IMG/VR virus record: IMGVR_UViG_3300037454_000941
Coordinates: 202,063 to 223,861 of that record
DNA: 21,799 nucleotides
Strand: one strand, 5' to 3'
Origin: a virus
Lineage: Duplodnaviria; Heunggongvirae; Uroviricota; Caudoviricetes
The notes under the pieces were generated by a model. That model ran no database searches. It saw only the letters and a program-made list of their open reading frames with translations, and was not told the DNA's origin. The position numbers and the translations under genes were made by a program. Positions 3,365 to 21,799 of the stretch are shown here, piece after piece. Each line of letters opens with the position of its first letter. Within the stretch, counting starts at the first letter, position 1.

Positions 3365-3886
3365 ATGGAAAATAGGGGAATGGTTATGCCTACGTACATC
3401 AAGCGGGACGCGATAAAGCGACTATTTGCCACCAACGGGTTCAAGCTGGTGACCTTGCAGTCTGGGCCGGCATTCGTATACAGTAGCCGCAGCGGGTTTT
3501 CCATGGAGTTCCCGGTTAAATGGCTGAGTAGCGACAATGGGAGGGATTACGAACTCATGCAGGTCCGCCACGTACTCAACCATATGACGGCATCGGCCAA
3601 GCGCGAGGAGAGGATTTTCGACTTCATGCGGGACAAGAAGAAGATGGATGAGCTGTTCCTCGCGGCGAAGGATTTTGGCATGACCTATGATTCCGACAAC
3701 AAGATGCTGATTTGCAAGAAGTCGCGGCGCAGCCGGACTGCATTGTATACCGTGGAACTGGACTACATAGTCGCCTTGAAGCTGGAGAATTGCAAGGACA
3801 TGAGCTACAAGGAGATTTTCGAGGCATTGAAGGATAGTGCCGAGCAGGACAAGAAGGAAAAGAACGGCGGCGAGGGGCAGAAATGA
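3365..3886 (+). CDS. Hypothetical protein (173 aa)
   Basis: Long ORF with an ATGA overlap to the HAD gene; charged C-terminus; no family recognised. Confidence 0.75.
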   Translation: MENRGMVMPTYIKRDAIKRLFATNGFKLVTLQSGPAFVYSSRSGFSMEFPVKWLSSDNGRDYELMQVRHVLNHMTASAKREERIFDFMRDKKKMDELFLAAKDFGMTYDSDNKMLICKKSRRSRTALYTVELDYIVALKLENCKDMSYKEIFEALKDSAEQDKKEKNGGEGQK

Positions 3887-4368
3887 GTACAATATCGGTT
3901 GATTTTGACGGTACGATATGCCACGGTGGTTGGCCCGACATTACCAAGGGAAGGCCGAACAAGGCTGTTATCCGATGGATCAGGAAGCGTCAGGCCAAGG
4001 GAGACATCTTCGTACTCTGGACCTGTCGCGAGAATTATGGCGGAAAGCACTTCCCGGACGGTAGGTACCTGGATGATGCGGTCAGGTTCTGTACAGATCA
4101 CCGAGTATTCTTTGCGAATATTAACGCCAACGCGATCGATGGCAGCATTGAGCGGGGCTGGGAAAGGGAAAACTACGGAAGAAAGGTCCGCGGCGATTTC
4201 TATCTGGATGACAGGTCGGTATGGTTTGATGAAGATTCAGTCTTCTCGCCCCTGCTGTGGCGGCTGTATCTGTGGCTGGTCGGTCGGAAGCTGGACCGGG
4301 AAAATAGGACGCGGCTAAAACGAATCGCTTCAAAGGCAAGGAAGGAAACCGATGACAAGAGTAAGTAA
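3883..4368 (+). CDS. HAD-superfamily phosphatase (minimal-cap, phage-type hydrolase)
   Basis: Motif I ISVDFDGTI, motif II LWTCR, motif III/IV RKVRGDFYLDDRS. Confidence 0.85.
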   Translation: MSTISVDFDGTICHGGWPDITKGRPNKAVIRWIRKRQAKGDIFVLWTCRENYGGKHFPDGRYLDDAVRFCTDHRVFFANINANAIDGSIERGWERENYGRKVRGDFYLDDRSVWFDEDSVFSPLLWRLYLWLVGRKLDRENRTRLKRIASKARKETDDKSK

Positions 4369-5713
4369 GAAAATGATCAAACAGATGAAGCTGGATGCCA
4401 AGAAGAACAAGGCTAACAAGAAACCGGCCCGGGGGACTGTCGAGTTGGGTTCGAGCGATGGTACCCTGCTCGATGTGGTGAAAAAATATGGAAAAACGGA
4501 TGATGCGCTGAAATATGTCGTAGAGAACCTTATAATCGAATTCGGTGGCACGACAATGGAGCACCAGTTCGCCATTGAGGATTTCGCATGTTCGGTTGAA
4601 GTAACTTTCAAAAATTGTATATTTAAGAATACTAACGGTCTGGGGAGTTTCCCCATCGTTATTGCTATAGGTCGGTATGCCAGGGGGATTGCGGGTGTCT
4701 GCGAGGTACGTTTTGAAAATTGCTTGTTTGATGCACGAACATATATAAACACAGGTTCCAACATACGGTTTGAACGGATTAGGGGCACCGATTTACCATA
4801 TATCAAGTCACTAACGTGTGTTGCCCTACGTACCAACCTTGGTTGTACGCTGTCCAATGTCAAATGTACCGAAAGGAAAGCAGTAGGGAGTATTAGCCTC
4901 GATGGGTTCGAACGGGTTCACGTGGAAAAATGTTCGAAGTATGACATACCCCGGGGGTCGTCGAACTGGTCAATAAATGGCGCCAGTTCAGTGCACATTA
5001 TAGCTTGCCGTGAATATGATACGCAGGGCAATAAGAGCGACATCTGTGATATAGATGAACTGTCGATTAACGACTGTGGCAATCAAATGCACTTAACCAT
5101 AGATAATGCTTCAGTTGGTTTTTTGCGTGTTGGTGGAGGCAGCATAGGTCCAGTAAACATAGGCCAGTCACACATAGCGAAATTGCTTATATACGATGCT
5201 ACGGTGGATGCTATTTATTCAACAAAATCGACTATAGAACGGATGGAAGCCAATAATTCGGTGTGCAGAGAAACGCCGTCCTGGGGACCTACGTATGTAA
5301 AGGCGATCGATTCAGTCGGGTTCGGGGAGCAGTCCGGGCATTACATACTCTACAAGAAATGCAGACTTACAAATTGGTATTCCATGGCCGAAAAGAATGC
5401 CGTCATAGTGGAACTTTTGGTATCACCGAACACAAAATTCCGTTCCGAGCCGCATAATTTGACGGAACGGAAAGTTCGCGTCGCCCGGGCGAAGGTAATA
5501 AACATGTACATTTTTGATCCAACTGGGCAACAATTCGTCCCGTATGTGCCCAAGTGGTACGAACGGGTGCGCAGCAAGTACGATCCAAGGTTCACATACA
5601 GTATTGGGAAGGTAGTCCGACCCAAAAACGGATTCGATGACTCTCCCGTTGCATGTGGAGGCGGTATCCATGGGCTCCGTTCCATGGCGGAAGCGGACGA
5701 ATACTGGATATAG
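4352..5713 (+). CDS. Beta-helix/solenoid-like repeat protein with C-terminal DUF5758-like domain (453 aa)
   Basis: The C-terminus YKKC...IVELLV...RKVRVARAKV...SKYDPRFTYSIGKVVRP..FDD....CGGGIHG..SMAEADEY matches the DUF5758 pattern as recalled. The centre has periodic beta-strand repeats (IDELSIND, VGFLRVGG, IAKLLIYD, IERMEANN). Confidence 0.75.
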   Translation: MTRVSKKMIKQMKLDAKKNKANKKPARGTVELGSSDGTLLDVVKKYGKTDDALKYVVENLIIEFGGTTMEHQFAIEDFACSVEVTFKNCIFKNTNGLGSFPIVIAIGRYARGIAGVCEVRFENCLFDARTYINTGSNIRFERIRGTDLPYIKSLTCVALRTNLGCTLSNVKCTERKAVGSISLDGFERVHVEKCSKYDIPRGSSNWSINGASSVHIIACREYDTQGNKSDICDIDELSINDCGNQMHLTIDNASVGFLRVGGGSIGPVNIGQSHIAKLLIYDATVDAIYSTKSTIERMEANNSVCRETPSWGPTYVKAIDSVGFGEQSGHYILYKKCRLTNWYSMAEKNAVIVELLVSPNTKFRSEPHNLTERKVRVARAKVINMYIFDPTGQQFVPYVPKWYERVRSKYDPRFTYSIGKVVRPKNGFDDSPVACGGGIHGLRSMAEADEYWI

Positions 5714-5782: not shown

Positions 5783-6700
5783 ATGAAGAAATGTAACTGC
5801 ATACCCCCTCCTCCACCTCCGGCTTGTGGCCCGTGCCCCCCGCCGCCGGTACCCCCGGTGCCGCCGGTACCCGATTGCAACTGCCCACCCAAGGTGTACA
5901 GGAACCCGACAGAGGTGAAAGTCGCTTCCAACGTCGTGGTCAGGGCAGGCGACCATGTTACGGTGGTCGTGGAGGAGACCGATACCGACACCATATACAC
6001 GGTTAACTCGACGAAGTATCCGGTGACATTGGAAGAAGGGGAGAGTGTACTGCATGGTGACGGAACTCCCGAACACCCACTTGGTGCCGGCATGTTCGTG
6101 GGTGCGACCGAGGAAACCCCGGGACAGCCCGGTGCAGTTCCTCCTCCCACGGCAAATGAAAGAAATCTTTATCTGCGCGGCGACGGCGCGTGGGCAGCTC
6201 CTTCGACCCAGGATGTCCCCGCGTTTACCGGTGCGACCGAGAATGAACCTGGCACGAGCGGTCTAGTTCCTGCACCGGCTGTAGCCGATCGCGAAAAGTT
6301 CCTTAAAGGTGACGGTACCTGGGCATCGGCCAGGGTCGATATCCGCGGGGGTGAGCATATTAACGTATCGCAGGATGGTGACACCTACACCATTGACGCG
6401 GAGCGGTTCCCCGTGGAAATCGACCAGAACTCGCTGGGCATACTGGGAGGGGACGGGACACCGGAACACCCGCTGTCCATAGCGAAGCTGGGCGGGGCTA
6501 CCGCCGGCCAGGCCGGTTCGGCTGGCGTGGCGCCGGCTCCTGCGATGGGAGACCAGAACAAGTTCCTGAAGGGGGACGGCACGTGGGCTACTGTGCCCGA
6601 GTCATATACACCGATAGCCTGCAGTGCCCAGACGATGGACACGTGGCTTGACGCGGTTGATGCAGAAGACAATACACCCGAGGTAAACGGAAATGGCTAA
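5783..6700 (+). CDS. Tail-fiber-like protein (305 aa) with Cys/Pro-rich N-terminus and three GAT..G..G.VP.P...K(F/Y)L(K/R)GDG(T/A)W repeats
   Basis: Three imperfect fiber repeats, two LxGDGTPEHPL motifs and two (A/G)G.H(V/I).V linker motifs, all recurrent in phage tail fibers. Confidence 0.75.
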   Translation: MKKCNCIPPPPPPACGPCPPPPVPPVPPVPDCNCPPKVYRNPTEVKVASNVVVRAGDHVTVVVEETDTDTIYTVNSTKYPVTLEEGESVLHGDGTPEHPLGAGMFVGATEETPGQPGAVPPPTANERNLYLRGDGAWAAPSTQDVPAFTGATENEPGTSGLVPAPAVADREKFLKGDGTWASARVDIRGGEHINVSQDGDTYTIDAERFPVEIDQNSLGILGGDGTPEHPLSIAKLGGATAGQAGSAGVAPAPAMGDQNKFLKGDGTWATVPESYTPIACSAQTMDTWLDAVDAEDNTPEVNGNG

Positions 6701-9700
6701 TTTTACGTACGTAGGCGAAGAAGGCGCGAAGCAATTATACCGTCACATCAAGAGGATGATCCCCATTGTGGATACGGCACTCGACGAGCATTCGGACAAT
6801 CCGATTAGCAATAGCGTCGTTACGGAACAGTTGAATATTATCAACGAGAGCATAGCGAGCTTCACCAGCTACGTGGTGGTCGATCCGGTTCAGGATGACC
6901 CCGACCGCCATCCGGATGTACCGGTGGGCAGCCGCTCGACGAAGTATATCTATCTCGTACAGGAAAATGAGGGAAGCGCCACCGAGGATACGTTCGCGGA
7001 GTGGATATGGTGTGTACCCGGCGGCCAGGCGGAATCGTATTGGCAGAAAATCGGTACGACTGCAACTCAGCCTGGGGCGATCAACTCGTGGATGCAGTGG
7101 TCGATTGACCACCAGTCGGTTGGCGATTCTGATTCCATCTACATCGGTCAGCGCAACGCGGCCTACGGCCATTCGATCCTGTTCGGTGAAGACAACTTGA
7201 CCGACATCGACGCCGGTGCAAAAAATCATGCGACCCTAGTCGGATTTGGTAACTATTCCACAAGTGATTTGGGCTCGTACACGGCACACACGTTAATTAC
7301 GCCGGACAATGCGTCGGATCTGCGCGATGGGTTTTGGGGGGACTTCCAGAGTATTCTCGTTGCTGCAAGGGATTTCTTGCTCACCACCAACCAGTACACG
7401 CAGGAACAGGTAAATGAGTGGTACGATTCACAGCGTTATGAAGTATCCAACACTTTGTTTACTGGCGACGATGGTTACGAACCATATCCATATTTGTATA
7501 GCGAGATTGCATCTTATTTAGCAACCGATTACCTCGGTGAGTATTCGTACTCACAGTATTTGTGCTCGCCGACTCGTATGATGGATTCGGAAACCCTCAA
7601 TTCGTTTGGATACCTCTTCTATGGATGGGATGATGCTGATGAAACAGAGCGCAAAACAATAATATCAACCTTATTGGATACGCCAGAATTAATCGCTTAC
7701 TTTAGCAATGACTACGTGGCTTTGTTTGAGAAATTCGTCGATGTCGGTGCGACAAACTTGGCCACCTACGAAATGTACTTGCTCGAACTGGTCTCTAATA
7801 TGATATATTATTGGAGCCCGTTGCTTGAGAATTCCACATTCACTGATGCAACCCAAGCGAAGACATTCTTCTACTATGCCGCTGCGATAGAATTCTTTAG
7901 AAAATCGGCAGAAAACTACCGGCTTGATCATATTGTCCGTATACCGTTTAGGAAAGCCGGTGTGTGGTGCAACTCTATCCTGATGGGTGTTGGCAACGAG
8001 TCGTATCACCACAACTCCATCTTGCTGGGCGCATACAACCGTTCGTTGGCACCTATTGACTCACATGGCAAATCCGAGAATACCGACGATGACGGATTCG
8101 GTCTCGCAATCGGTAACTGCAACGTGGTCGGTCGCAACTACGACATCGCCCTGGGCTTCAACTCGATGGCGAATGGCGGCGAGAACCTGGCCATTCATCA
8201 CTCTTATGCCGGCGGGTACCGCAACGTCTCGATGATGAGCTCGTACATTACCGGTACGGCTAATATGGGTATAATCGAATCCAAGTTGAACACCTATGGA
8301 ATAGACGAAACCGACACGTACTGCGCTCGAAACTTCCTGGTTGCATCCGAAGTGGATTACGATACGGAAACCGACAAGAAATCAAAATATGCCGGTTCGA
8401 GCGTATTGACCGACAACATGATGGTCGGTGCCCGTATCACGTTTGGTACAACCGAAGATGGGTATGGCGCATATTCGCGCAACATAGTCATGATGTCGCC
8501 AGCTGGATATGAGAGCTACACCACTTCGATATGCGCACCTTCGGCAAACGATAACATCCTGATTGATCCGTTGCATAACACTCCGTGGGACCAATATTCC
8601 ACTTATCCAACATATATCGAAATCAGTAATGCGTTTGACCGAAACACGATACTACATGCGAGGGTTGATGCCGAATGGTTTAGCAGCGTAACTGACAACA
8701 TATTCATCAATTCAGTAAACTGGTTCTGGGGTGATGATTACCAGGATGATAATTCATATCCCCCAAACCGGACAGCGGCCAGAAACTTGGTAATTGGGTC
8801 TATCATCGACGCAGAAGTGTACACGTCGTATTCCATCGACAATAACGTGCTGACGCAAGGATCGATGTTACATGTAACGAACAACGAGGAGATTGAGCCA
8901 AGCGGACCATCGGTATCAAAAAATGTACTGATGAACGGAGCCTACCTAAAATCATCATCCAACGAAACCGTTGAAGCCAAAAATGGCAACCCATATTGGG
9001 GAAATGGGTGGGATTATACCAAAAATACGGTTCTGTTTGGTGCATATGGCGAAGGGTTGCTTGGGTGCTTCTCCCACAGCGAAAATGCTGATTGCACCTC
9101 GGACGACTGGTATGATTCCGACACAAGGAATTACATTCCGTATATCATGGATTCCATGAAACTGGATCTACCTTATTACCTTACACTCGACGCATGGATG
9201 GTGAACTCCAGGGCTACCGTGAACTTCGGCGATAACTTCGTCGGGGATGCGAATTGCTCGTTCGTTACCGGTGAAAACAACGTTGTGAACGGCATTGACT
9301 ATGCAAACATCCACGGCAACAGGAACCTGGTTAACAATGCGGACGGCGGTGGAGTAGCTCGTATACCGCACCTGACCATTTCTGGTTCCGAGAACAAGGT
9401 GTACAATTTGTACGGCGCGTATGGCGACGAGTTCTGTGGGAATACTATATATGGGCGACGCAACTACCTGTGTGGCGTAGCCATCATGGACTCGACGGTG
9501 ACCGGGCGAGAAAACGACTTGTCCGGTGTCGATCCGGTTCGTCTCAGTGTCGAGCAGATTATCGACTATCAGAGTCGGTATGCTCTGTCGAATCAGTCGT
9601 CCTACCCCAAATACTTCATTGCTACGGAAACCGGTGATGTGAATCTGTACTGCTTTGGCAAAGTCAATCAATATGATGTAGACGGAACGATTTATACAGT

Positions 9701-10778
9701 CAAGTGGCGAGTGTTTGCTGGAAAAATCTATAAATTCATACCAGATTATTACGAATTCAATACAAAACGTCTGAACGTCATGCCGGATCAGCGATATGAC
9801 GTATATGGCGAAGACTACAATGATGACGGCGATAACATGTATGAGTATGATCAGGCGTTTAACGACTATATCACCGCATGGGCGGAAAATTATTTCAGCG
9901 AAGAGCCTTGGGATTACTACGTTTACTATCTGCCGAAATATCGCCAACCGGACAAGCACATTGATAGCGATATGGGATACCTTATCGACCGTGCCTTCGT
10001 GGTCGGCCAGCAAAACCACATCGGTTCGTTCAACGTCGGCCACAGCATTTTTGGTTCCAACAACAGGATAGTTAATACTCTGTTCGATATTAACAAGTCC
10101 GGTGAACCATTCTGTCTGAGCAATTCTTTTGTCCAAGGTAATGACAACTGGGCCGAAAATGGAAGCAACCAGGTGCTCATGGGTAACGGCATCGTCGCAT
10201 ACGGACACAACTCGGTCGCTATCGGTACCCAGCTCGTGTCCGACCAGTGGCAGACCGTTCTCGGCAAGTACAATGCTCCGAAACCCGGCCCGGCTCGTAT
10301 CAAGGAATTTTACCACCAAGAAGATTCGTATGACCGTTCCGATGTAGTGTACAAGCAAGACGCTAGTGGACAGATTGGAAAATTCTACGAAGCACAGGAT
10401 GACATTGAAGCTGGTACCCCGTGGGATGAATCCCTGTGGAAAGAAATTCCATCCCCAGATAGAAACAAGGCACTGTTCATTATCGGCAATGGCTATAGCG
10501 AACGTGACGATCTGATGTGGCAAGACGAACAGTACATCAAGCGCTCAAATGCGTTCACCGTGTATGCGGACGGTACTGTTGAGGCTCGCCGGTTCGTCTC
10601 CAGTGAGGATGACGCTTCGTTGACCGAAGGAGATGGTATCAGCATCATAGAAGACTCCAATGGCGTGACCATATCTATCAAACCGCCGACCAATCCGGAA
10701 CGCCGGCACGTCCTCGAATGGGATCCAGTCGATCGCAAGGTCAAGTGGGTGGAAGTGGGCATGTATAGCCCAGAGTAA
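6693..10778 (+). CDS. Large tail fiber/adhesin (1361 aa) with YadA-head-like beta-solenoid repeats and inserted domains
   Basis: GAGGT RBS and 8-nt overlap with the upstream gene. N-terminal phage fiber motifs (VDTALDEHSDNPISNSVV; KYIYLV...EWIW...WQKIG), many S(I/V)(A/L)(I/M)GxxN repeats, and C-terminal QTVLGKYN...LFIIGNG...RSNAFTVYADG. Confidence 0.8.
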   Translation: MANFTYVGEEGAKQLYRHIKRMIPIVDTALDEHSDNPISNSVVTEQLNIINESIASFTSYVVVDPVQDDPDRHPDVPVGSRSTKYIYLVQENEGSATEDTFAEWIWCVPGGQAESYWQKIGTTATQPGAINSWMQWSIDHQSVGDSDSIYIGQRNAAYGHSILFGEDNLTDIDAGAKNHATLVGFGNYSTSDLGSYTAHTLITPDNASDLRDGFWGDFQSILVAARDFLLTTNQYTQEQVNEWYDSQRYEVSNTLFTGDDGYEPYPYLYSEIASYLATDYLGEYSYSQYLCSPTRMMDSETLNSFGYLFYGWDDADETERKTIISTLLDTPELIAYFSNDYVALFEKFVDVGATNLATYEMYLLELVSNMIYYWSPLLENSTFTDATQAKTFFYYAAAIEFFRKSAENYRLDHIVRIPFRKAGVWCNSILMGVGNESYHHNSILLGAYNRSLAPIDSHGKSENTDDDGFGLAIGNCNVVGRNYDIALGFNSMANGGENLAIHHSYAGGYRNVSMMSSYITGTANMGIIESKLNTYGIDETDTYCARNFLVASEVDYDTETDKKSKYAGSSVLTDNMMVGARITFGTTEDGYGAYSRNIVMMSPAGYESYTTSICAPSANDNILIDPLHNTPWDQYSTYPTYIEISNAFDRNTILHARVDAEWFSSVTDNIFINSVNWFWGDDYQDDNSYPPNRTAARNLVIGSIIDAEVYTSYSIDNNVLTQGSMLHVTNNEEIEPSGPSVSKNVLMNGAYLKSSSNETVEAKNGNPYWGNGWDYTKNTVLFGAYGEGLLGCFSHSENADCTSDDWYDSDTRNYIPYIMDSMKLDLPYYLTLDAWMVNSRATVNFGDNFVGDANCSFVTGENNVVNGIDYANIHGNRNLVNNADGGGVARIPHLTISGSENKVYNLYGAYGDEFCGNTIYGRRNYLCGVAIMDSTVTGRENDLSGVDPVRLSVEQIIDYQSRYALSNQSSYPKYFIATETGDVNLYCFGKVNQYDVDGTIYTVKWRVFAGKIYKFIPDYYEFNTKRLNVMPDQRYDVYGEDYNDDGDNMYEYDQAFNDYITAWAENYFSEEPWDYYVYYLPKYRQPDKHIDSDMGYLIDRAFVVGQQNHIGSFNVGHSIFGSNNRIVNTLFDINKSGEPFCLSNSFVQGNDNWAENGSNQVLMGNGIVAYGHNSVAIGTQLVSDQWQTVLGKYNAPKPGPARIKEFYHQEDSYDRSDVVYKQDASGQIGKFYEAQDDIEAGTPWDESLWKEIPSPDRNKALFIIGNGYSERDDLMWQDEQYIKRSNAFTVYADGTVEARRFVSSEDDASLTEGDGISIIEDSNGVTISIKPPTNPERRHVLEWDPVDRKVKWVEVGMYSPE

Positions 10779-13700: not shown

Positions 13701-14541
13701 CATATCGACCACAGAAGGTAACTCGGTCGCGATACCGATTACGTTTACTGAGGGGGCCGATAGTTCGACTATTTCAATCAGTGGCGGAACACTCGTTAAC
13801 GGCGCAATCGTTGTATCGGACATACAATCGGATGTAACGGTAACAATAAACCCGGCCAAGGTACAGGTCAATGCCAGCTTGGTAGACACTAACGTAATCA
13901 CAGCAATATCGCCCACTTGCCAGTACGTATCGCCGGGGGACACCGCCCAGATTACATGCACGTATGCTTCGGGCATGAGTGCATCCGATGTGACGGTCAG
14001 CACGGGAACCATAACCGGTAATACTTGGTATATCCCAACCTCATCGGCTAATTGGGTCATATCCGCTTCGGCGTACACGGCTGGCAGCGGTTATACCTAT
14101 TTCAAGCTGGACATTACCGCGAACAAGGGCGATTCCTACCTTCAAGTGTCCGAACTTGAGCTCTATACCCAATCAGGCGACAAAATACCGCTGGAATATG
14201 TGGACGGAACGGCAGGAAACAACACAAACGAAAGCGGGGCCAAGCTGTGTGACGGATCGACCAGCACTAAATTCTGCTGTCGATTCAATTCATCCGTGGG
14301 TGCATACCATATATTCCGTACGTCATCCGAGACCAACGTCGCATATTACCGGATGGCCACGGCCAACGACAGTTCCCAGTACCCGACCAGGAATCCGTAT
14401 TCATGGACACTCTGTGGTTCGGCTACGGCAGTCACGTCGCGTACCGATAGTTCATGGGTAGTTCTGGACCGCCGTACAAACGATAATACTATGGGGTCAA
14501 CGAATTACACGTTCTACGACTTCACTGTGAACGGAGGTTAA
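10792..14541 (+). CDS. Multidomain Ser/Thr-rich adhesin-like protein (1249 aa): Ig-like repeats, three ~170 aa beta-sandwich modules and a C-terminal discoidin/CBM32-like domain
   Basis: GGAGG RBS; no signal peptide (short basic N-terminus); internal protein repeats are directly visible. Confidence 0.8.
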   Translation: MSDQPYITTPSGRRIRIGDKKNGMLLRKHPPAYTVTFVSNCEWAEASVSSVHVYDGGSVTVPLVLTMGADYTYVGAIGGTVSEAGVTVENVTSDVEVTLVPAKEPYVISVESLCDWASTESESYYGFEGHTATIPVTLIDGADESTISVTGGVLSNNAIVIADVQSDINVTISPVKVQVMPDLSNTESIIAIVPSVAYATPGATTEFIVTYAEGCGADDVKVDNGTFNGNVLTYIVPVDTWSIRPAITDNVSNIEVLIGSGESSRSDIPLNTYYKYSLTEQLYEAAEIGAIGTIKTIAFYIVTPDSSTRTIDIYMAHTNKTAFSSYNDWVSMSDSDKVFSGTIYCGTTGWHELTLTTPFEYDGHSNLLIMVDDNTGAYNSSGYFATFDGSNGSTLYIYNDNTNYSPESAATYGGSITTSKNQLKMVISGERLYTITIDSSACPWASTEIDSTIARLGDTISIPVTLSNGADFSTISVSGGTVVNGAIVITNIQSNVNVVISPAKVQIIPDISSTDRVIAITPSVIYGVPGDTATFTVTYADGYGDEDVTVPGGSFDDSTMSYLVPSDVWYIYPKIEDVYDNREITIGNESSSTGYYPIRNGYYYTACEQIITANEIGTAATIKSVSFKVPQYSSSSPTIRCVDLYIKHTNKTQFSSTTSWIIPSDDDKVYSGLIYIGATGWFEMQLNKPFVYNGSDYLLIALIDNSGESLAGIYFSTISSSSNKVLYASNNNDPYTPENLSLTTGTRSNYRTYWKMILSNKPVDRSETTIGVGFGPVIHSLYIYAQVSRQYAIKQQIILANEVNMAGPITKLSLYVSYVSSGNRNVDVYLGYTNVSSYASASDMITQPAGNKVFSGTINMSQIGWLEIPLDTPFNYNGVNNLLVTINDKTGTGLSTDARVYGYQVAGNSRFISKYNSSAYDPADSNTLRYGTGYTSQFCMVTNLTFKTDSPVYTVSIETNCTWVSPRTTHISTTEGNSVAIPITFTEGADSSTISISGGTLVNGAIVVSDIQSDVTVTINPAKVQVNASLVDTNVITAISPTCQYVSPGDTAQITCTYASGMSASDVTVSTGTITGNTWYIPTSSANWVISASAYTAGSGYTYFKLDITANKGDSYLQVSELELYTQSGDKIPLEYVDGTAGNNTNESGAKLCDGSTSTKFCCRFNSSVGAYHIFRTSSETNVAYYRMATANDSSQYPTRNPYSWTLCGSATAVTSRTDSSWVVLDRRTNDNTMGSTNYTFYDFTVNGG
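10888..14075 (+). repeat. Four copies of an Ig-like protein repeat (about 10888-11100 half copy, 11107-11540, 12085-12520, 13645-14075)
   Basis: Recurring YTx(T/S)...C.W.S......G....IP(V/I)T...GAD.STIS(V/I)(S/T)GG....AIV....QS...V.I.PAKVQ...PG.T....TYA.G. Confidence 0.85.
11551..13632 (+). repeat. Three copies of a ~170 aa module (11551-12075, 12535-13068, 13090-13632)
   Basis: Shared pattern IG...P...Y.Y...QI..A.E(I/V)G..G.I.......R..D(I/L/V)Y...T(N)...........KV(F/Y)SG......GW.E..L..PF.Y(D/N)G...LL....D.(T/S)G. Confidence 0.85.
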
Positions 14542-14542
14542 C

Positions 14543-15457
14543 GTGCGGATCGCGGTCGCCATACCCAACCATAACCAGCACTCGATGGTACGCGAGACCA
14601 TCGCTATGCTGTATTCCGGTACGGTCAAGCCAGCCGCAATCTACGTGATGTCTGATGCCAAGCCGTACTGGAATCTTCCGGGTGACCAAGGGAATGTCAT
14701 CCCGCTCAATAACTTCAATAAATTCATCGGACGTTGCGGAAACCGGAACTCGGTTGTCGAACATTTCCTCTATTCCGGATATGACTCGCTGGTATTCATT
14801 GACGGGGACTGCTATCCGGATTCCCCTGACTTTCTTGCCAAATACGAGACTTTGCTGGAAAACCACGACCTGGTATTCGGTACGCGCCGGCACGATGACG
14901 TGTCATCGCTCGCCATGCCACCATCGGACCTCCTAACGGCCAACATGGACAACCTATGGTCAGGCAACCCGGTCGACTATCGGGACTTGAGACTTGTCTC
15001 CGGCGCGGTGGAGGCCTGGAATGCATCCAAGACGTTCTCGGAACGTCTCGACCTTATGCTCACGGGAATGATCGGTTGGAGCTGCAACTTCGGTTTCTCG
15101 CGCAACGGCATTGCCAAGCTCAGGAATTTCCAGAAAAGGGTCTACGGGCTCGACGAAGGTATCTTCGACTCCGGGGCGTTCGGCAATGGATGGGGATATG
15201 AGGATGTTGCGATGGGGCTGGATGCACTATATGCCGGGCTGGACATATCCATAACCGACTCGGTGCAGGTCGGCCACCGTTCCCATGACCGTTCGGACGG
15301 CCTTTTCGACCACGTCAAGGGACGACATGCCATTATGGAACGGGCGAGGATGCTGGGGCGGTACGTGGCCTCCAGGCACACTGTGGCGAAGGTCGCCGCC
15401 GTGGCCGCATCGTTCTTCATCGGCGGCTTTGTCACGGCCATCTGCGCATTCTTCTAG
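14543..15457 (+). CDS. GT-A fold glycosyltransferase (GT2-like with Glyco_transf_7C-like motif) with C-terminal membrane anchor
   Basis: GGAGGT RBS and GTG start. Motifs IAVAIPNHN, VFIDGDC (DxD), WSCNFGF, GWGYEDVAMG and GHRSH. Hydrophobic tail VAAVAASFFIGGFVTAICAFF. Confidence 0.85.
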   Translation: MRIAVAIPNHNQHSMVRETIAMLYSGTVKPAAIYVMSDAKPYWNLPGDQGNVIPLNNFNKFIGRCGNRNSVVEHFLYSGYDSLVFIDGDCYPDSPDFLAKYETLLENHDLVFGTRRHDDVSSLAMPPSDLLTANMDNLWSGNPVDYRDLRLVSGAVEAWNASKTFSERLDLMLTGMIGWSCNFGFSRNGIAKLRNFQKRVYGLDEGIFDSGAFGNGWGYEDVAMGLDALYAGLDISITDSVQVGHRSHDRSDGLFDHVKGRHAIMERARMLGRYVASRHTVAKVAAVAASFFIGGFVTAICAFF

Positions 15458-15510: not shown

Positions 15511-18500
15511 ATGAGCGATATTAATAACGAACTTCCAAGAATGATTGACGGATTCGGCGATGACAAGCTGTTCGCTGAATGCGCAAAGTCAGACAAAAAT
15601 GGCCATTCGCTCGAACTGGGTATATCCGAGGATGACAAGATTATTACCATCGGCGGACGCCAGATAGCCGGTGTCGGCGGTGGCAACATGGTCGTACTGG
15701 ATGGCATAACATCGACATGGTGGGACATTGCACGCGCTCAGGCCGAGGGAAAGACGGTCTACCTGAAGTTCGGCATTCCTGGCTATTTCTCGTCCATCGT
15801 CGGTCCGTTGAAACACGCCCTCGGCACTATGGAGGACGGCAACAAGATCCAAGCCATCAAGCGTGCGTGGTACGCATCTCAATATTTCAGCGAGCTGAAG
15901 AAGATCAACCTGGCCTATCGAGCCCCAGCCGGTGAAATCGTTCCCGAAGAAGAGGGCGTGGAACCGACTTATCAGGAAGGATTCGTCCCGTTCACCTATG
16001 ATGAGGCTATGCAGCTGGCCTATGGCAAGCTGCCTCTCGAACGGTTCGACCTCTACATGTACGGTCGGGGGTGCGATATTTATCCTGGGGACGAATACAA
16101 CGGCAATACCGAGCCGTACCGTACATATGAATATCCGGCGGTTCCAAAGAACTTTGATCCGAATACCGACGCAACGCTCGATTTCTCTGATTATGTGTCC
16201 GGTCTGGACGACCCCACCACACGCGACAAGGCCCAGATGGATTATGACCGCTGGATCAAGGACGCTTCCGCCGGTGGCCTTCTGTCCATCACCGACCTGA
16301 CCGGAAGCAGCCGTCCGCACGTCATCAAGGACTACACTAGCACCGACGAATATATCCGTCACTTGGTGGGTTACTACTTCGACGAGATTCCGGAAACGAT
16401 TGTCAAGAAATATTCCGACCGGATGAACCAGTTCAACATGGCCTACCGCGCACCAGCAAATACGATTATACCAATAACGGAAGAACCGGAATATCAGACG
16501 AATTACATCCCGTTCGAGGAAGGCGATGCGGTAAAGCTCATCACCGGCCAGCTCACTTTGGAGAAATTCGTCGTATATTATTTTGCTGATCATTATGTCG
16601 ATGAATTTTACAACCCAGAGACCGACCCGACCCTCGATTTCAGTGAATATAACCTTCCCGACTTGTCAGATGATTCTGTGCGCAAGGCTGTAGAAGAAAC
16701 CTACGACGAGTGGGTTGCCGAAAATTACGAGGACATGATAAATGACATCTATGGCCAAGTGCTTCCATCCATTTTAGGCGTCCTCTATGATACCTTGCTC
16801 CCGTACGAAGTCGACCTTGACATTACCCTAGCCGGATTTCTCCGTGTCGGTATAGGGCTCGCCTACAAGCGTAGCATGCCTTTCATCACGCCGCGCTACA
16901 TGGCCATCGGTCTCCCGAATACGTACGCGGTCGACTTGTCATCGTTCAAGGATGCTGGTGCGGACCTTTCGACCCTGGAAGGCGTAATCGAGACGCTGGG
17001 CAACATCACCAGCGGCAAGCTCGTGGACACGCTGAGCGGCCTTGGAAACGGAGAAAGCGGATCTGGAATCGGCGGAATTCTCGGCGGCCTTATAGGCGGT
17101 TCCGAGGAATCCGATAACAGCGACGTGACTATCGAACCGCTGAATAGCGGAAGCCTCAATAAAGGCGGCTCTGTCCGTCTGGAAGCCACCCGTGATGGCG
17201 ATATCTCCGATAGCGGTGACGATCCGAGCGGAGACAATGACGATGATTCTAACGACAATGATAATGCTAATCCGATACTAGACTTGCTCGGAATCGACCA
17301 AGAACAGTTGGCCGGCGTGGTGGCCGGCATATCCGAAGCCACATTCGGACGTGATGACGACATATTCTATCTTTTTGCCGTGGGCATGGATGTCAATCGC
17401 CGCTTGTCGACAATTCCCGGATTGGAAGACATTCTTGGTCCAGACACCGACATTGAATTTGACCGGCACAAGGGTTTCATAGTCGACGTTAACGGATGGA
17501 ACATATTTGCACCAATTTCAGGTGACGCCTACACCGGTATCCAACTTGACACACTGATCGAGTATGTAGAGCAAATCGAGGATGTGATTGAACGACTCGG
17601 TGATACTATTCCGGGACTGGAATATATTCAAGGACTTATCGACGCCATAGGCGACTTGCTCGGTATCGGAATCAGCGTAACCCGCATCAAGGAACTTCTC
17701 CAACTCATCAACAACATGACGATGAGCTTCTCTACCGTATTGAACCAACGTGCCGTCTATCACCTTGTGGAAAAAGGATGGCCGGTATCCCTGCTCAAGT
17801 TTGACAAGGATGCGAAGCGGCTGTATTCGACACAGTGTCTGGCCAAGGTGGCCGGTGCTACCCCGTCCGCATCGGTCATTAACGTTTCGAACTTCGGTGG
17901 CCTGATCGGCACGGCGATAGCCGAACTGTTGATTCGCGCACTAGGTAACTACAACATGGAGATGCTCGTCGAGCTTGTTCTCGGGTTTACCTCCAGCGTA
18001 TCTTCCAATACGTTCAACGGCGCTGACGACGCAATCAAGAATGCGTTCGAAAAATATGTGCCACTTTACGGACTAGAGTGGCATGGGCTGACCGAAATTC
18101 CTATGGGTGCGGGCGTATTGGATGGCCTACCGCATGATCTCGCGAATATACACGTAAAGGCGGGAATCACGTTCCGCACTGACGAGGATGAGGATGGCGG
18201 CGTTACCGGGTCCGGTGTTGGCGGCGTATTCAACCGCACCAAGCTCAGCGTTGAGCAAATTGACACCGATTTCCTACGCTCTTACGTCAAAATCAACGAA
18301 GGTACTTCCTTCAACGAAGTGTACAAGGCCGCCGTGCTCGGCAAGGGCGTGCTCTATGAGAACGTACCGAGCGTATCCGCAGTTGTAGATGTTTCTTCCA
18401 CCGAAACCACTGATGGTGAAATAAAGTCGGCGAGCACCGAGCAGGATTCCAGCGACACGGCAATGCGCTCTTGGGAACTGCACGGAGAAGTGGTACCTAC

Positions 18501-21500
18501 CGTGTACGACGGAAAGAAGGCCGTACAGATGCGCATAGGTGCCGGCGATGGCTCCACCATCGACTTGGTCGGCGTGGAGAACACCGAGAACGTTCCGGAG
18601 TATGTTAAGATTGCTGGTGAATCGACCGAAGAAAAATGTGACGTTCGAGTAATTGCCATTGATGGCCAAGCGCACTCCATGTCATATCATATCTATAACC
18701 GAGATGACATCACTGGTGAAGGGGGAATTGCGTCATTGAAGTTGCATTGTGGACCCGGTGACATCGGGTCATACGAAATCGGTGTATTCGTTAAGGATAT
18801 ACCGGCAACATGCAATGAATTTGACCCGAATACGTCGATTGTACCAAGTTTTGCCGAAGTTAGCATTAATGACGTAGTGTACATTGGTACTATTGAATTT
18901 ACCCCGAATAGCACAGTGAAGATTCCCATTTGTGGAATTAATTGGTCTACCGAGACAGTTTTCCCATCATATATAAATCATGACCCCAGTAAGAACTTGC
19001 TGGTTGTTATTTGGAGTAACACTGACGAAGTAGTTGGTGAACCCACATTTCATTATGATGATGTTGAAAACTACGAACATACTTATTCGACATTGTGTGT
19101 ATCATCCACGAATAATTTTGATCCATTCGATGTTCCGGTGGAAACTGATGAAACCGAGCCAGTTATTGAGGAGGAATCCGATGATAACGAGTCTGATCCA
19201 TCGTTCACTATGACAGCAAAATTGGGTGTCGCCGATATCACTATTGGTTTCAGCGAGCCATATGCTGTACCGAAATATGAGTTGCCGATTACCATTGGCG
19301 ACAAGAACTCAAGCAAAACAAGCAATCGCATTTTCGGCATAGAAGGTAAGCCGTACTCGGTTTCATATCACATTTTCAACGCCAGTGATATAAAATGTGC
19401 CGGTGATATATCGTCGCTCAAACTCTATTGTAAAGATGGTTCGGAATGTACTCGCAATGTATGTGTATATCTGCAAACAACTTCAGATATTGATTATTTC
19501 CCTGACGGTTTGACTTTAGAAGAGTTAGCCAACAATAATCCCGTATCCGTATCGTGGAATGATTGCATTTACGCTGGACCACTACATTTTATACCAAATA
19601 GTGACATAGAAATATCAATTAATACAATTGATGAAACATATGCACTTATCCCCACCACGGTCCACTACAACGGTGAGGATAACATCCTTGTCGTAATTGA
19701 AGATTATAGTAATGATACTATCAGCGGAACAGCACCAGAATTTTCCTATACCCCATCGGATTCTGAAGATCCGCATGATTCATCGTTGTGCGTAGTAAGC
19801 GACAGTGACTATCTGGATCCGTGCAATCCGGGTAATTTTGCCGCCGTTGGCACTCTCTACTTAAAGGATGGCGCACCCACCATAACATTGAAATTCGCGG
19901 ACGGTGTCCGATACGACACCACAGCAAGCGAAGTACCAGACGAGGGTTCTGGAAACACCGGTCACTATGGACCTCTTCCGGTCAACTCCACTGACGCCGT
20001 TTGGAACGCTTCTCCGGTCTCCGAATCGCACATGATATATCCCGCCGAGTATATCCAGCGTGGCGGACTTATCACTGGAATTCGATTCTACTACTCGCCT
20101 TACTGGGACACCACTGCATACGGATATCGTAGCATGACTCGGCATCTCAAGGCATATATTCGATACACGCACTACACCGCGTTCACCAGCAAAACAGATT
20201 CTGTCGAACCACCGACTACCGGTAACTTGGTGTTCGATGGCAATGTGCTGTTCGAGGCCCGATTCAAGAACAATGACCTCGGCGAAAAGCACTGGTTGAC
20301 TCTCGAATTTGACGAAGGCGTATCGTTCGCCTACGACGGTTTCCACAGTCTGCTGGTTTCAGTGTATGACTACGGCGAAGCCGAAGAACCACCAACGGAA
20401 AAGCCGCCCTATGAGATATTCTCCTGCAGCCTGATGCCGGACACGAAGAACATCATGTCCATCGGCTCCAAGGTCAAGAAGGACTCGAACACTAACGAGA
20501 ATGTGTCTGTTCCATTCAGTTACAACTGCGTCCCGTTGTGCAATTTCGTATTCAGCGAGGACGAATCGGTTGACCCGGAACCGGAGCAGATAACCGATTC
20601 CGACCCGGTTACTCCCGACTGGGAAGCCAACCGAGTCGAAGGCACTGAACCGGTTGAATGGAAAATCGTGGCAACAGAGACTCGTGCAGTCTATGTCAAG
20701 ACTATCCAAGATGCAATGAAGAATTATAACTGGTTTGCTCCGCAGGGTATTGACGTATATCTGGAGTACGAACCACATACAAATGTCATAGACTTTGGTC
20801 CAAAGTCGAGCACTGGCTACGTTACGGACATCAACGACTTCATGCCCCCTTGGTACAATGGCGGTCCATTGCGCTTCAAGGTTCTTGAGGCGTCTTCACG
20901 CGAAGGGTTGCTTGCGGTTGCCGAACATGAAGAATTTGTTGGATATCATGGTATTATATATAGTAGTGTCAATGACGGAAACAAAGGTCGTTCTGCGTCC
21001 ATATCCGCTCCTGATATTCCGGTGTTGGTCAAATACTACCTATATGCCAGTGAAGAGTACGGCACGTTTACATTCGCCTACCGTCCGACCATTTCAATCG
21101 ATATCGATTACGACAGTGGCTACTGGAATCATGGATACGATAGTGGGTATTATTTTTATACAATGACTCCGGAATTCATGAGATACTCTGGATTCTGGGC
21201 ATATCAGCTATCGCCACTGATGATGGATGAAAACCGCAGCAGCTCCGATATATCGATTGCATATGGCGGTGTCGACATGACTCCATATTATTTCTTCGAG
21301 TCATTGTACAATAATATGGTGACGGTCAATATACATAGTTCTCACGATGCATATCAATTAGAGAACTGTGGTTCTAGCTATGCCGATTTTGTACGGTACG
21401 ATGCAAAAGATTTTACTGAAAATGGTATTTCAACTCTCCTATATGCCGAGCTGTTCTGTGGCAATAACGGCGAAATCCAGTATAACGCAGATCAAGGACG

Positions 21501-21799
21501 CTCAATATCAACATCCGACGTAGACGAGCCATACTACATCGGGTTGTATATGGATTACATGGAATACGAGCCGGACTTGCCACAGGGAAAGAGCCTCGTG
21601 CCACCCATCGAGCTCGCCCTCGAAGCTGACTCCGAGTACGTGTACCATATGGATTACATCCGCGGCGTTGAAATCGAACCGAACACGGTCAACGTCATAA
21701 CCATTTCCGACGCGGTAATTGACGAAACGGTCGAAATCATCGAAACTGTTAACGGAGATACTATCCGTCACCATTATGGCCAGGCCGACAGCCCAATCC
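15511..21799 (+). CDS. Giant acidic multidomain virion/fiber-like protein, >2096 aa, 3'-partial (absent from the supplied ORF track)
   Basis: I translated frame 1 from ATG 15511 (MSDINNELPRMIDGFGDDKLFAECAKSDKNG...) to the window end and found no stop in 2096 codons. It has fiber-type N-terminal motifs (AKSDKNG; WDIARAQAEGKTVYL), internal repeats and three divergent copies of the module seen in 10792..14541. Confidence 0.9.
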   Translation, partial: MSDINNELPRMIDGFGDDKLFAECAKSDKNGHSLELGISEDDKIITIGGRQIAGVGGGNMVVLDGITSTWWDIARAQAEGKTVYLKFGIPGYFSSIVGPLKHALGTMEDGNKIQAIKRAWYASQYFSELKKINLAYRAPAGEIVPEEEGVEPTYQEGFVPFTYDEAMQLAYGKLPLERFDLYMYGRGCDIYPGDEYNGNTEPYRTYEYPAVPKNFDPNTDATLDFSDYVSGLDDPTTRDKAQMDYDRWIKDASAGGLLSITDLTGSSRPHVIKDYTSTDEYIRHLVGYYFDEIPETIVKKYSDRMNQFNMAYRAPANTIIPITEEPEYQTNYIPFEEGDAVKLITGQLTLEKFVVYYFADHYVDEFYNPETDPTLDFSEYNLPDLSDDSVRKAVEETYDEWVAENYEDMINDIYGQVLPSILGVLYDTLLPYEVDLDITLAGFLRVGIGLAYKRSMPFITPRYMAIGLPNTYAVDLSSFKDAGADLSTLEGVIETLGNITSGKLVDTLSGLGNGESGSGIGGILGGLIGGSEESDNSDVTIEPLNSGSLNKGGSVRLEATRDGDISDSGDDPSGDNDDDSNDNDNANPILDLLGIDQEQLAGVVAGISEATFGRDDDIFYLFAVGMDVNRRLSTIPGLEDILGPDTDIEFDRHKGFIVDVNGWNIFAPISGDAYTGIQLDTLIEYVEQIEDVIERLGDTIPGLEYIQGLIDAIGDLLGIGISVTRIKELLQLINNMTMSFSTVLNQRAVYHLVEKGWPVSLLKFDKDAKRLYSTQCLAKVAGATPSASVINVSNFGGLIGTAIAELLIRALGNYNMEMLVELVLGFTSSVSSNTFNGADDAIKNAFEKYVPLYGLEWHGLTEIPMGAGVLDGLPHDLANIHVKAGITFRTDEDEDGGVTGSGVGGVFNRTKLSVEQIDTDFLRSYVKINEGTSFNEVYKAAVLGKGVLYENVPSVSAVVDVSSTETTDGEIKSASTEQDSSDTAMRSWELHGEVVPTVYDGKKAVQMRIGAGDGSTIDLVGVENTENVPEYVKIAGESTEEKCDVRVIAIDGQAHSMSYHIYNRDDITGEGGIASLKLHCGPGDIGSYEIGVFVKDIPATCNEFDPNTSIVPSFAEVSINDVVYIGTIEFTPNSTVKIPICGINWSTETVFPSYINHDPSKNLLVVIWSNTDEVVGEPTFHYDDVENYEHTYSTLCVSSTNNFDPFDVPVETDETEPVIEEESDDNESDPSFTMTAKLGVADITIGFSEPYAVPKYELPITIGDKNSSKTSNRIFGIEGKPYSVSYHIFNASDIKCAGDISSLKLYCKDGSECTRNVCVYLQTTSDIDYFPDGLTLEELANNNPVSVSWNDCIYAGPLHFIPNSDIEISINTIDETYALIPTTVHYNGEDNILVVIEDYSNDTISGTAPEFSYTPSDSEDPHDSSLCVVSDSDYLDPCNPGNFAAVGTLYLKDGAPTITLKFADGVRYDTTASEVPDEGSGNTGHYGPLPVNSTDAVWNASPVSESHMIYPAEYIQRGGLITGIRFYYSPYWDTTAYGYRSMTRHLKAYIRYTHYTAFTSKTDSVEPPTTGNLVFDGNVLFEARFKNNDLGEKHWLTLEFDEGVSFAYDGFHSLLVSVYDYGEAEEPPTEKPPYEIFSCSLMPDTKNIMSIGSKVKKDSNTNENVSVPFSYNCVPLCNFVFSEDESVDPEPEQITDSDPVTPDWEANRVEGTEPVEWKIVATETRAVYVKTIQDAMKNYNWFAPQGIDVYLEYEPHTNVIDFGPKSSTGYVTDINDFMPPWYNGGPLRFKVLEASSREGLLAVAEHEEFVGYHGIIYSSVNDGNKGRSASISAPDIPVLVKYYLYASEEYGTFTFAYRPTISIDIDYDSGYWNHGYDSGYYFYTMTPEFMRYSGFWAYQLSPLMMDENRSSSDISIAYGGVDMTPYYFFESLYNNMVTVNIHSSHDAYQLENCGSSYADFVRYDAKDFTENGISTLLYAELFCGNNGEIQYNADQGRSISTSDVDEPYYIGLYMDYMEYEPDLPQGKSLVPPIELALEADSEYVYHMDYIRGVEIEPNTVNVITISDAVIDETVEIIETVNGDTIRHHYGQADSPI
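15901..16722 (+). repeat. Two copies of a ~100-120 aa AYRAP repeat (15901-16263, 16429-16722)
   Basis: N(L/M)AYRAPA..I(V/I)P...YQ....PF....A..L..G.L.LE(R/K)F..Y...(D/N)P.TD.TLDFS(D/E)Y...DD....K....YD.W occurs twice. Confidence 0.8.

Follow-up and report, generated by a model that had tools for sequence, protein, structure and literature searches.

A giant modular protein encoded at the end of a T4-like phage contig is a probable tail fiber or receptor-binding adhesin

We identified a giant gene in the last 6.3 kb of a 21,799-nucleotide stretch of viral DNA (hereafter the window; G000:C1:202063-223861), which is the final 21.8 kb of a linear 223,861-bp IMG/VR contig (IMGVR_UViG_3300037454_000941). 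This supposedly ‘empty’ region is coding, and its product is probably a virion tail fiber or receptor-binding adhesin of a T4-like giant phage with a contractile tail. The reading rests on distant relatives that occupy a tail-fiber slot in smaller phages, on lectin-like modules in the distal half of the protein, on the mosaic exchange of some of these modules as cassettes and on a conserved, convergently transcribed tail-fiber partner gene. It draws further on the T4-type character of the phage, on a fiber motif (amino acids 11-61) that recurs in the fiber-like protein P0024 and on two neighboring genes that encode proteins of 305 and 1249 amino acids (aa).

The giant gene and its relatives

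The open reading frame (ORF) starts with an ATG at window position 15511 on the + strand and stays open to position 21798, one nucleotide before the window ends. All amino acid numbers below count its codons from that start. An open-ended listing of frames gives it 2096 codons, none of which is a stop. The initial annotation had argued that a genuine giant gene was hidden here from a track of closed ORFs, and this is what we found. As the window reaches to the end of the contig and no stop comes before that point, the gene is cut at the contig end, leaving it 3'-truncated. The contig is 59% complete by CheckV. Continuation of the gene across the contig ends was rejected, as there was no matching 5'-open + strand frame at the contig start. 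The break within this particular gene suggests an assembly failure of the kind that often affects hypervariable fiber tips.

Among 5.8 billion proteins, a word-indexed search picked out ten relatives that are full-length (2076-2230 aa) and collinear with the query, sharing 46-75% identity over ~100% of it. All ten open with the same MSD... start and none carries a Pfam domain. They run 87-119 residues beyond the last window codon (~107 in the closest), so the complete protein would be about 2,200 aa long, with ~107 C-terminal residues absent from the window. This bounds a size that had been left open as ‘>2096’ aa. The implied uniqueness of the protein did not hold either, given these homologues in related giant-phage contigs and a wider family of 838-1100-aa proteins that shares the N-terminal core. 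Codon-level comparison covered the syntenic copy in the 308-kb sister contig L003 (L007, L008 and L009 were left out) and gave ratios of nonsynonymous to synonymous divergence (dN/dS) of 0.06-0.15 over the N-terminal half and over the distal module M3. The giant gene is therefore real and under purifying selection. The ten collinear relatives, together with the low dN/dS in the conserved parts, are comparative evidence that excludes a frameshift or a chimera; neither of these faults, which the initial annotation had named as grounds for doubt, was found, nor was a full match to a characterized family.

The more distant relatives provide the first link to tail fibers. An exhaustive phmmer search of 1.84 billion representatives with aa 1-960 yielded 9 proteins, two from the same family and seven more distant. 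P0019, P0020, P0021 and P0023 (838-1100 aa) align with the giant protein in up to three collinear blocks (aa ~40-133, ~391-473 and ~682-777), a link with an E-value of 8e-15 in that library (phmmer and family profile). A faint additional match falls at the extreme C-terminus. Between blocks 1 and 2 these proteins lack the duplicated modules, named AYRAP, of the giant protein. Since the short relatives share collinear blocks yet are missing the modules between them, the giant protein appears to have grown from a shorter one by the insertion of AYRAP modules, linkers and jelly rolls. P0022, P0024 and P0025 share residues 11-61 only, in one to three copies. P0024 also has minor-tail and tail-collar-fiber PHROG segments and a C-terminal Fib_succ_major (Fibrobacter succinogenes major) domain, which lends at most indirect support to a Fibrobacter host in the rumen. 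The description of the N-terminus as fiber-like was thus apt, as residues 11-61 recur, partly in tandem, in fiber-like proteins.

The small viral contigs L004 and L005 place the short relatives in the genome. In both, a relative of 839/842 aa ends a canonical contractile-tail module that reads sheath (phrog_165, E 2e-82), tape measure, two baseplate hub genes, gp25-like wedge, gpJ-like gene (phrog_6), gpI-like gene (phrog_203) and relative. This position is the tail-fiber slot of P2/Mu-like myoviruses (P2 gpH / Mu gp49). Viral-contig scans for P0020, P0021 and P0024 found no loci, and when named relatives of P0019 were sought, every protein retrieved was either unnamed or labeled ‘hypothetical’. 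The contig of the window itself carries a T4-type major capsid protein (Pfam Gp23, E 7e-66) and its sister L003 a gp6/J-like wedge; a contractile tail with baseplate-attached fibers is therefore expected in this phage. A search for the gp9/gp10 N-domain (PF07880) had no match, and neither did its control, in two contigs that are both incomplete.

Known families offered no end-to-end match, as the initial annotation had anticipated. The whole protein hit zero families in Pfam, PHROGs and NCBIfam, and its six sub-domains found nothing credible in Pfam at E <= 10, where the sole match was DUF5423 (E 0.18). Sequence searches of the PDB with the family profile, the N-terminal 150 aa and P0024 gave no match, nor did tblastn of both halves against 50,697 GenBank phages (INPHARED). 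The ESM Atlas had no usable match to the N-half or the C-terminal 402 aa, a scan of GTDB genomes uncovered no relative and shorter relatives of the C-half amounted to one 339-aa fragment. We found no description of the family or of its architecture in the literature.

Modular anatomy and cassette mosaicism

The protein divides into the following parts (window coordinates and strand first):

15535..15693, + strand: N-terminal ~50-aa fiber-type motif, aa 9-61; 1-3 copies also in P0022, P0024 and P0025
15628..15909, + strand: core block 1, aa 40-133; common with the 838-1100-aa proteins in the fiber slot of small myoviruses
15880..16326, + strand: AYRAP module 1, aa 124-272; alpha-rich, inserted relative to the short relatives, no fold match
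16408..16776, + strand: AYRAP module 2, aa 300-422; duplicate of module 1
16681..16929, + strand: core block 2, aa 391-473; common with the short fiber-slot relatives
17026..17310, + strand: Gly-rich acidic flexible linker, aa 506-600; contains a conserved Gly-zipper-like GIGG.LGGLIGG
17311..18360, + strand: conserved predicted helical region, aa 601-950; holds core block 3 (aa ~682-777), low model confidence
18511..19140, + strand: predicted jelly-roll module M1, aa 1001-1210; galactose-binding-like, a divergent cassette that is 40-51% identical to L003 at the nucleotide level
19207..19845, + strand: predicted jelly-roll module M2, aa 1233-1445; top folds Bxb1 tail tip, 7tog_A and phi812 baseplate
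19897..20559, + strand: module M3, aa 1463-1683; profile homology to M1/M2, highly conserved in the close clade, poorly modeled
20593..20910, + strand: conserved segment M4, aa 1695-1800; poorly modeled
20911..21798, + strand: Tyr-rich hypervariable distal domain (tip), aa 1801-2096 plus the ~107 absent residues; exchangeable alleles

Most of the anatomy proposed from the letters alone was borne out. The two AYRAP domains are duplicates (aa 124-272 versus 300-422; BLAST E 8e-14, hhalign 99.7%), and the three beta-sandwich modules were recovered at aa 1001-1210, 1233-1445 and 1463-1683, the first two in structural models and M3 by profile homology only. Composition supports the acidic linkers and the Tyr-rich C-terminal region: Gly-rich or acidic linkers lie at aa ~506-600, 951-999, 1205-1232 and 1685-1700, aa 1801-1900 contain 15 Tyr per 100 residues and the net charge of the protein is -205. 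A hydropathy scan detected neither a signal-like N-terminus, in agreement with the earlier claim, nor a transmembrane segment. The proposed long helical region (aa ~590-850) fared less clearly, as the helix is indeed predicted but solely in a low-confidence model. Family members all keep several Gly, Leu and Ile residues of the GIGG.LGGLIGG motif (aa ~519-530, window ~17065-17100) unchanged, and the acidic linker around it is otherwise disordered.

Structures were predicted with AlphaFold2 on halves of ~1000 residues from a shallow, 11-sequence alignment. The AYRAP modules scored mostly 70-87 in block predicted local distance difference test (pLDDT), with module 1 mostly at 70-82, and M1 and M2, which were modeled as jelly rolls, mostly ~60-89. 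Outside the AYRAP modules the N-half was poorly modeled (mean pLDDT of 39.6 for aa 1-960), as were M3, M4 and the tip. In an exhaustive structural comparison, M1 and M2 superposed on solved carbohydrate-binding module (CBM) and lectin domains with VIA-align Z scores of 8.9-10.7 over 141-162 residues, placing the models in the galactose-binding-like beta-jelly-roll class. M3 would join this class by hhalign alone, which linked M1 to M2 with a probability of 99.9%, M2 to M3 with 95.3% and M1 to M3 with 86.8%. The fold matches of the modules were as follows:

Mycobacteriophage Bxb1 tail tip (9d93_Pa): Z 10.7, 162 residues aligned, root mean square deviation (rmsd) 3.7
Carbohydrate esterase PbeAcXE (7tog_A): Z 10.1, 152 residues aligned
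Phage phi812 baseplate protein (9euf_0): Z 9.9, 150 residues aligned
Cwp84 lectin-like domain: Z 8.9, 141 residues aligned
Cyanophage A4 capsid protein: Z 8.8, 157 residues aligned
PHR domains and many CBM32 modules: Z 6-8

The PBCV-1 capsid also matches the jelly-roll modules (Z 7.6). As sequence identity across the M1/M2 matches is only 6-12%, they point to a shared fold, not to proven homology. Fold searches with the N-half returned only helical-hairpin noise (Z <= 5.6; Foldseek E >= 0.8). Foldseek with the entire C-half retrieved nothing from the PDB at E <= 0.001, and comparison of the C-half with BFVD gave generic tandem jelly-roll matches to uncharacterized phage proteins.

The distal modules are also where related phages differ. 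Whereas the flanking genes match their L003 counterparts at 93-99% identity, the giant protein does so at only 77%, and the divergence is concentrated in discrete segments. Amino acid identities to the window copy were distributed as follows:

P0003: aa 1-999, 96-100%; M1, 43%; M2, 37%; M3, 98%; M4, 67%; tip, 26-27%
P0004: aa 1-999, 42-89%; M1, 41%; M2, 49%; M3, 93%; M4, 86%; tip, 73-84%
P0005: aa 1-999, 42-90%; M1, 60%; M2, 50%; M3, 50%; M4, 85%; tip, 76-84%

The pattern of P0004 and P0005 is the inverse of that of P0003. At the nucleotide level, identity to L003 is 0.96-1.00 up to aa ~1030, 0.40-0.51 in M1, 0.71-0.77 in M2, 0.92-0.97 over aa ~1431-1730 (M3) and 0.50-0.56 beyond aa ~1730. These steps in nucleotide identity fall at module borders. 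Synonymous divergence (dS) from L003 leaps from ~0.06 to 0.7-2.0 or saturation, which indicates that recombination has replaced alleles and speaks against rapid evolution on the spot. The conservation profile and the identities per module therefore describe the conserved N-terminal part and variable, recombining distal part by which tail fibers and receptor-binding proteins (RBPs) are recognized. Cassette exchange of this kind is a signature of phage host-range determinants.

Neighboring genes and the conserved tail-fiber partner

The giant gene is the last of a tightly packed run of + strand genes, whose order is kept in L003 and in the 407-kb NCBI contig L009. The genes that precede it are:

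5783..6700, + strand: 305-aa protein with a Cys/Pro-rich N-terminus (PPPP and VPP runs) and three fiber-type repeats, G.VP.P......FL[RK]GDGTWA; phrog_4302, function unknown
6693..10778, + strand: 1361-aa unannotated protein; 93% identical in L003
10792..14541, + strand: 1249-aa protein with three further jelly-roll module copies
14543..15457, + strand: GT2-like glycosyltransferase of 304 aa with a single C-terminal hydrophobic anchor (aa 280-304), directly upstream of the giant gene

Downstream, the giant gene in L003, L009 and L008 (a clade of 46% identity) is followed by a convergent, repeat-rich tail-fiber gene of 1798-2704 aa, which matches phrog_9729 (E 2e-78) as well as phrog_27373 and phrog_1718 and contains many tandem ~40-aa repeats. 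The contig of the window stops short of this position. The partner gene lies at:

L003, 21512-29218, - strand: convergent tail-fiber gene, phrog_9729
L009, 23050-29265, - strand: convergent tail-fiber gene, phrog_9729
L008, 6963-12359, - strand: convergent tail-fiber gene, phrog_9729

A histidine-phosphatase-like domain (RHAERGD motif) forms the end of the partner, and enzymatic tips of this sort are unusual in fibers. Directly 3' of the giant gene, two of these contigs also encode a 142-aa ORF (L003, 19602-20030, + strand; L009, 19678-20106, + strand) that is 97% identical between both, in phages whose giant proteins are far less alike. It has no family match and is a candidate fiber chaperone or assembly factor. 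The equivalent position falls beyond the end of the window's contig.

The jelly-roll module is confined on this contig to the giant and 1249-aa genes, which hold six copies between them, and the 1249-aa protein is also the only paralogue of the giant protein found on the contig. Nucleotide identity of its C-terminal region (window 14101-14700) to L003 drops from ~0.99 to 0.61-0.79, and in L003 the gene is divided into ORFs of 1061 and 187 aa. This is a second cassette replacement or a gene split. Flanked by the two adhesin-like genes that carry the modules, the GT2-like gene keeps its place in L003, where its product is 93% identical, and also occurs in L009; its synteny was seen in three contigs. 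The enzyme might modify glycans of the host envelope or the fiber proteins themselves.

Upstream of the fiber block are a ClpP/head-maturation-protease-like ORF of 180 aa (2445-2987, - strand; phrog_94, E 3e-18), a phosphoheptose-isomerase-like ORF (3883-4368, + strand; phrog_1238, E 8e-19), which is 11 kb from the giant gene, and a 453-aa protein (4352-5713, + strand) whose N-terminus is basic, whose middle part is repetitive and rich in Cys and whose C-terminus holds a DUF5758 / phrog_9562 domain. A 407-aa gene with weak similarity to the latter is on the opposite strand in L003. The putative promoter motif TTTGCTATATTT is absent from the 21.8-kb window, also when one mismatch is allowed. 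The fiber/adhesin block may belong to a different transcription class.

Possible functions and significance

The function of the giant protein is less mysterious than the initial annotation implied, as genomic context and anatomy fit a phage tail fiber or receptor-binding adhesin. We infer its virion location, its oligomeric state, its attachment site and its glycan ligand. The N-terminal ~1000 residues, with the fiber-type motif and the three core blocks, would oligomerize and dock the protein on the baseplate or fiber apparatus. The Gly-rich and acidic flexible linkers would then project the distal array outward, and this array of three lectin-like jelly rolls and a Tyr-rich tip would bind glycans on the host surface. 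Related phages could retune host specificity by swapping M1, M2 and the tip as cassettes through recombination.

Several observations weigh against this assignment. No tail-fiber family of Pfam or PHROGs matches the protein, and its link to the fiber-slot proteins consists of three short blocks that total ~230 aligned residues at 33-36% identity. The net charge of -205 and the largely helical N-half are atypical of classical, beta-rich fibers. The N-terminal ~1000 aa are unmodeled (mean pLDDT 39.6, aa 1-960) and without a fold match, so the docking role is conjectural. Baseplate genes do not adjoin the giant gene; in the sister contig, ~150 kb separates it from the J-like wedge. Further, both non-structural enzymes and proteins that decorate capsids (cyanophage A4, Z 8.8) contain jelly-roll lectin modules.

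The last two points bear on the first alternative, a decoration fiber attached to the capsid or neck that, like Hoc or a whisker, would tether the virion to polysaccharide (plant fiber, mucus or biofilm) and would not be the primary RBP. T4-like phages display decoration proteins with immunoglobulin-like or lectin-like domains. The matches of the jelly rolls to the capsid proteins of cyanophage A4 (Z 8.8) and PBCV-1 (Z 7.6) are in line with such a role, as are the distance of the gene from the baseplate genes in the sister contig and the long, flexible acidic linkers, which suit a dangling adhesin. The distant relatives of the N-core, however, reside in the tail-fiber slot after the wedge genes and not in head modules, the conserved partner gene is of the tail-fiber type and exchange of tip cassettes is more typical of receptor-binding proteins. 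We consider a decoration fiber unlikely, if less so than the explanations that follow.

The membrane-anchored GT2-like enzyme directly upstream, syntenic in three contigs, and the phosphoheptose-isomerase-like gene 11 kb upstream could instead signal a non-virion protein that acts during infection, such as a cytoplasmic or lysis-released scaffold that binds or edits glycans and acts with the enzyme on polysaccharide of the host envelope, in superinfection exclusion or surface remodeling. The failure of any structural-protein family to match the giant protein would agree with this. Yet the protein has no signal peptide or transmembrane segment and hence no evident path to the envelope, no catalytic family was detected, and the homology of the N-core to fiber-slot proteins and the adjoining fiber genes favor a structural role, all of which makes a non-virion protein distinctly improbable. 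Very large proteins are often packaged by giant phages, and the conserved GIGG.LGGLIGG between disordered acidic linkers and a largely helical N-half that resisted modeling could belong to an internal protein that is ejected into the host, its Gly-zipper aiding envelope penetration through membrane activity; but three lectin-like modules and a hypervariable tip would have no obvious use inside a capsid or cell, the Gly-rich segment is too short for a membrane span, the hydropathy scan showed no transmembrane segment and the relatives occupy a fiber slot, so we regard this as highly improbable. There is also a small chance that the protein is something other than a tail fiber or receptor-binding adhesin or any of these three.

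Known fiber systems share some traits with the giant protein and lack others. As with the fibers in the gpH slot of P2 and Mu, the giant protein has a conserved N-terminus and a variable distal part, and its only detectable distant N-core homologues (838-1100 aa) hold exactly that slot in L004 and L005. It differs in having no sequence similarity to P2 gpH, Mu gp49 or the tail-fiber families of Pfam and PHROGs, in being ~2.5x longer through its two AYRAP modules, linkers and three jelly rolls, and in not being adjacent to wedge genes in its own genome. Its phage shares the T4-type gp23 capsid with T4, whose gp34-gp37 system it resembles in that several very large fiber-like genes cluster away from the baseplate genes and the distal tip shows mosaic exchange. 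Mosaic exchange is well known for T4 gp37/gp38. Unlike the T4 fibers, the protein matches no T4 fiber family, its N-half is predicted to be helical and not a beta-structured shaft, and it has globular lectin modules strung on acidic linkers.

The jelly-roll fold of M1 and M2 is shared with the phi812 baseplate protein 9euf_0 and the Bxb1 tail-tip protein 9d93_Pa (Z 9.9-10.7, 150-162 residues, rmsd 3.5-3.7), whereas at 9-12% identity only one domain matches, the rest of the architecture is unrelated and homology is not established. The same fold (Z 6-10) occurs in CBM32 modules, in the CBMs of acetyl-xylan esterases (7tog/7tok) and in PHR domains. CBM32 and the esterase CBMs are typical glycan-binding modules that would plausibly suit a plant-fiber or rumen setting, but the giant protein matches no CBM or F5/8 type C family in Pfam even at E <= 10.

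Huge, unannotated adhesin-like structural proteins are common in giant phages. The protein described here would work like a modular tail fiber or RBP, yet it stands outside every annotated fiber family and has one domain type of known fold. Its architecture, a short-fiber core combined with AYRAP modules, a Gly-zipper linker and three jelly rolls, had no counterpart in the libraries or literature searched. Only the N-terminal 1000 residues, which have no fold match and a very narrow distribution, could hide something new. The AYRAP duplication, the Gly-zipper between acidic linkers, the helical core, the lack of any PDB, Pfam or PHROG match and the rarity of the sequence (~9 representatives per 1.84 billion) raise the prospect, a long shot in our view, that these residues are more than a passive anchor or shaft and form a new virion-borne machine. 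Such a machine might be a penetration device, either membrane-active or enzymatic, to which a lectin array is fused, and the protein would then stand for a new class of host-entry proteins in giant phages.

If the tail-fiber or receptor-binding assignment is correct, the giant gene would be one of the main determinants of host range in a clade of T4-like giant phages that are uncultured, and would define an unannotated fiber family whose core spans from 33-kb myoviruses to phages above 300 kb. Its lectin-like modules could serve as probes for the surface glycans of fiber-degrading bacteria. The clean borders of the modules would also make it a natural system in which to study how cassette exchange redirects giant phages to other hosts.

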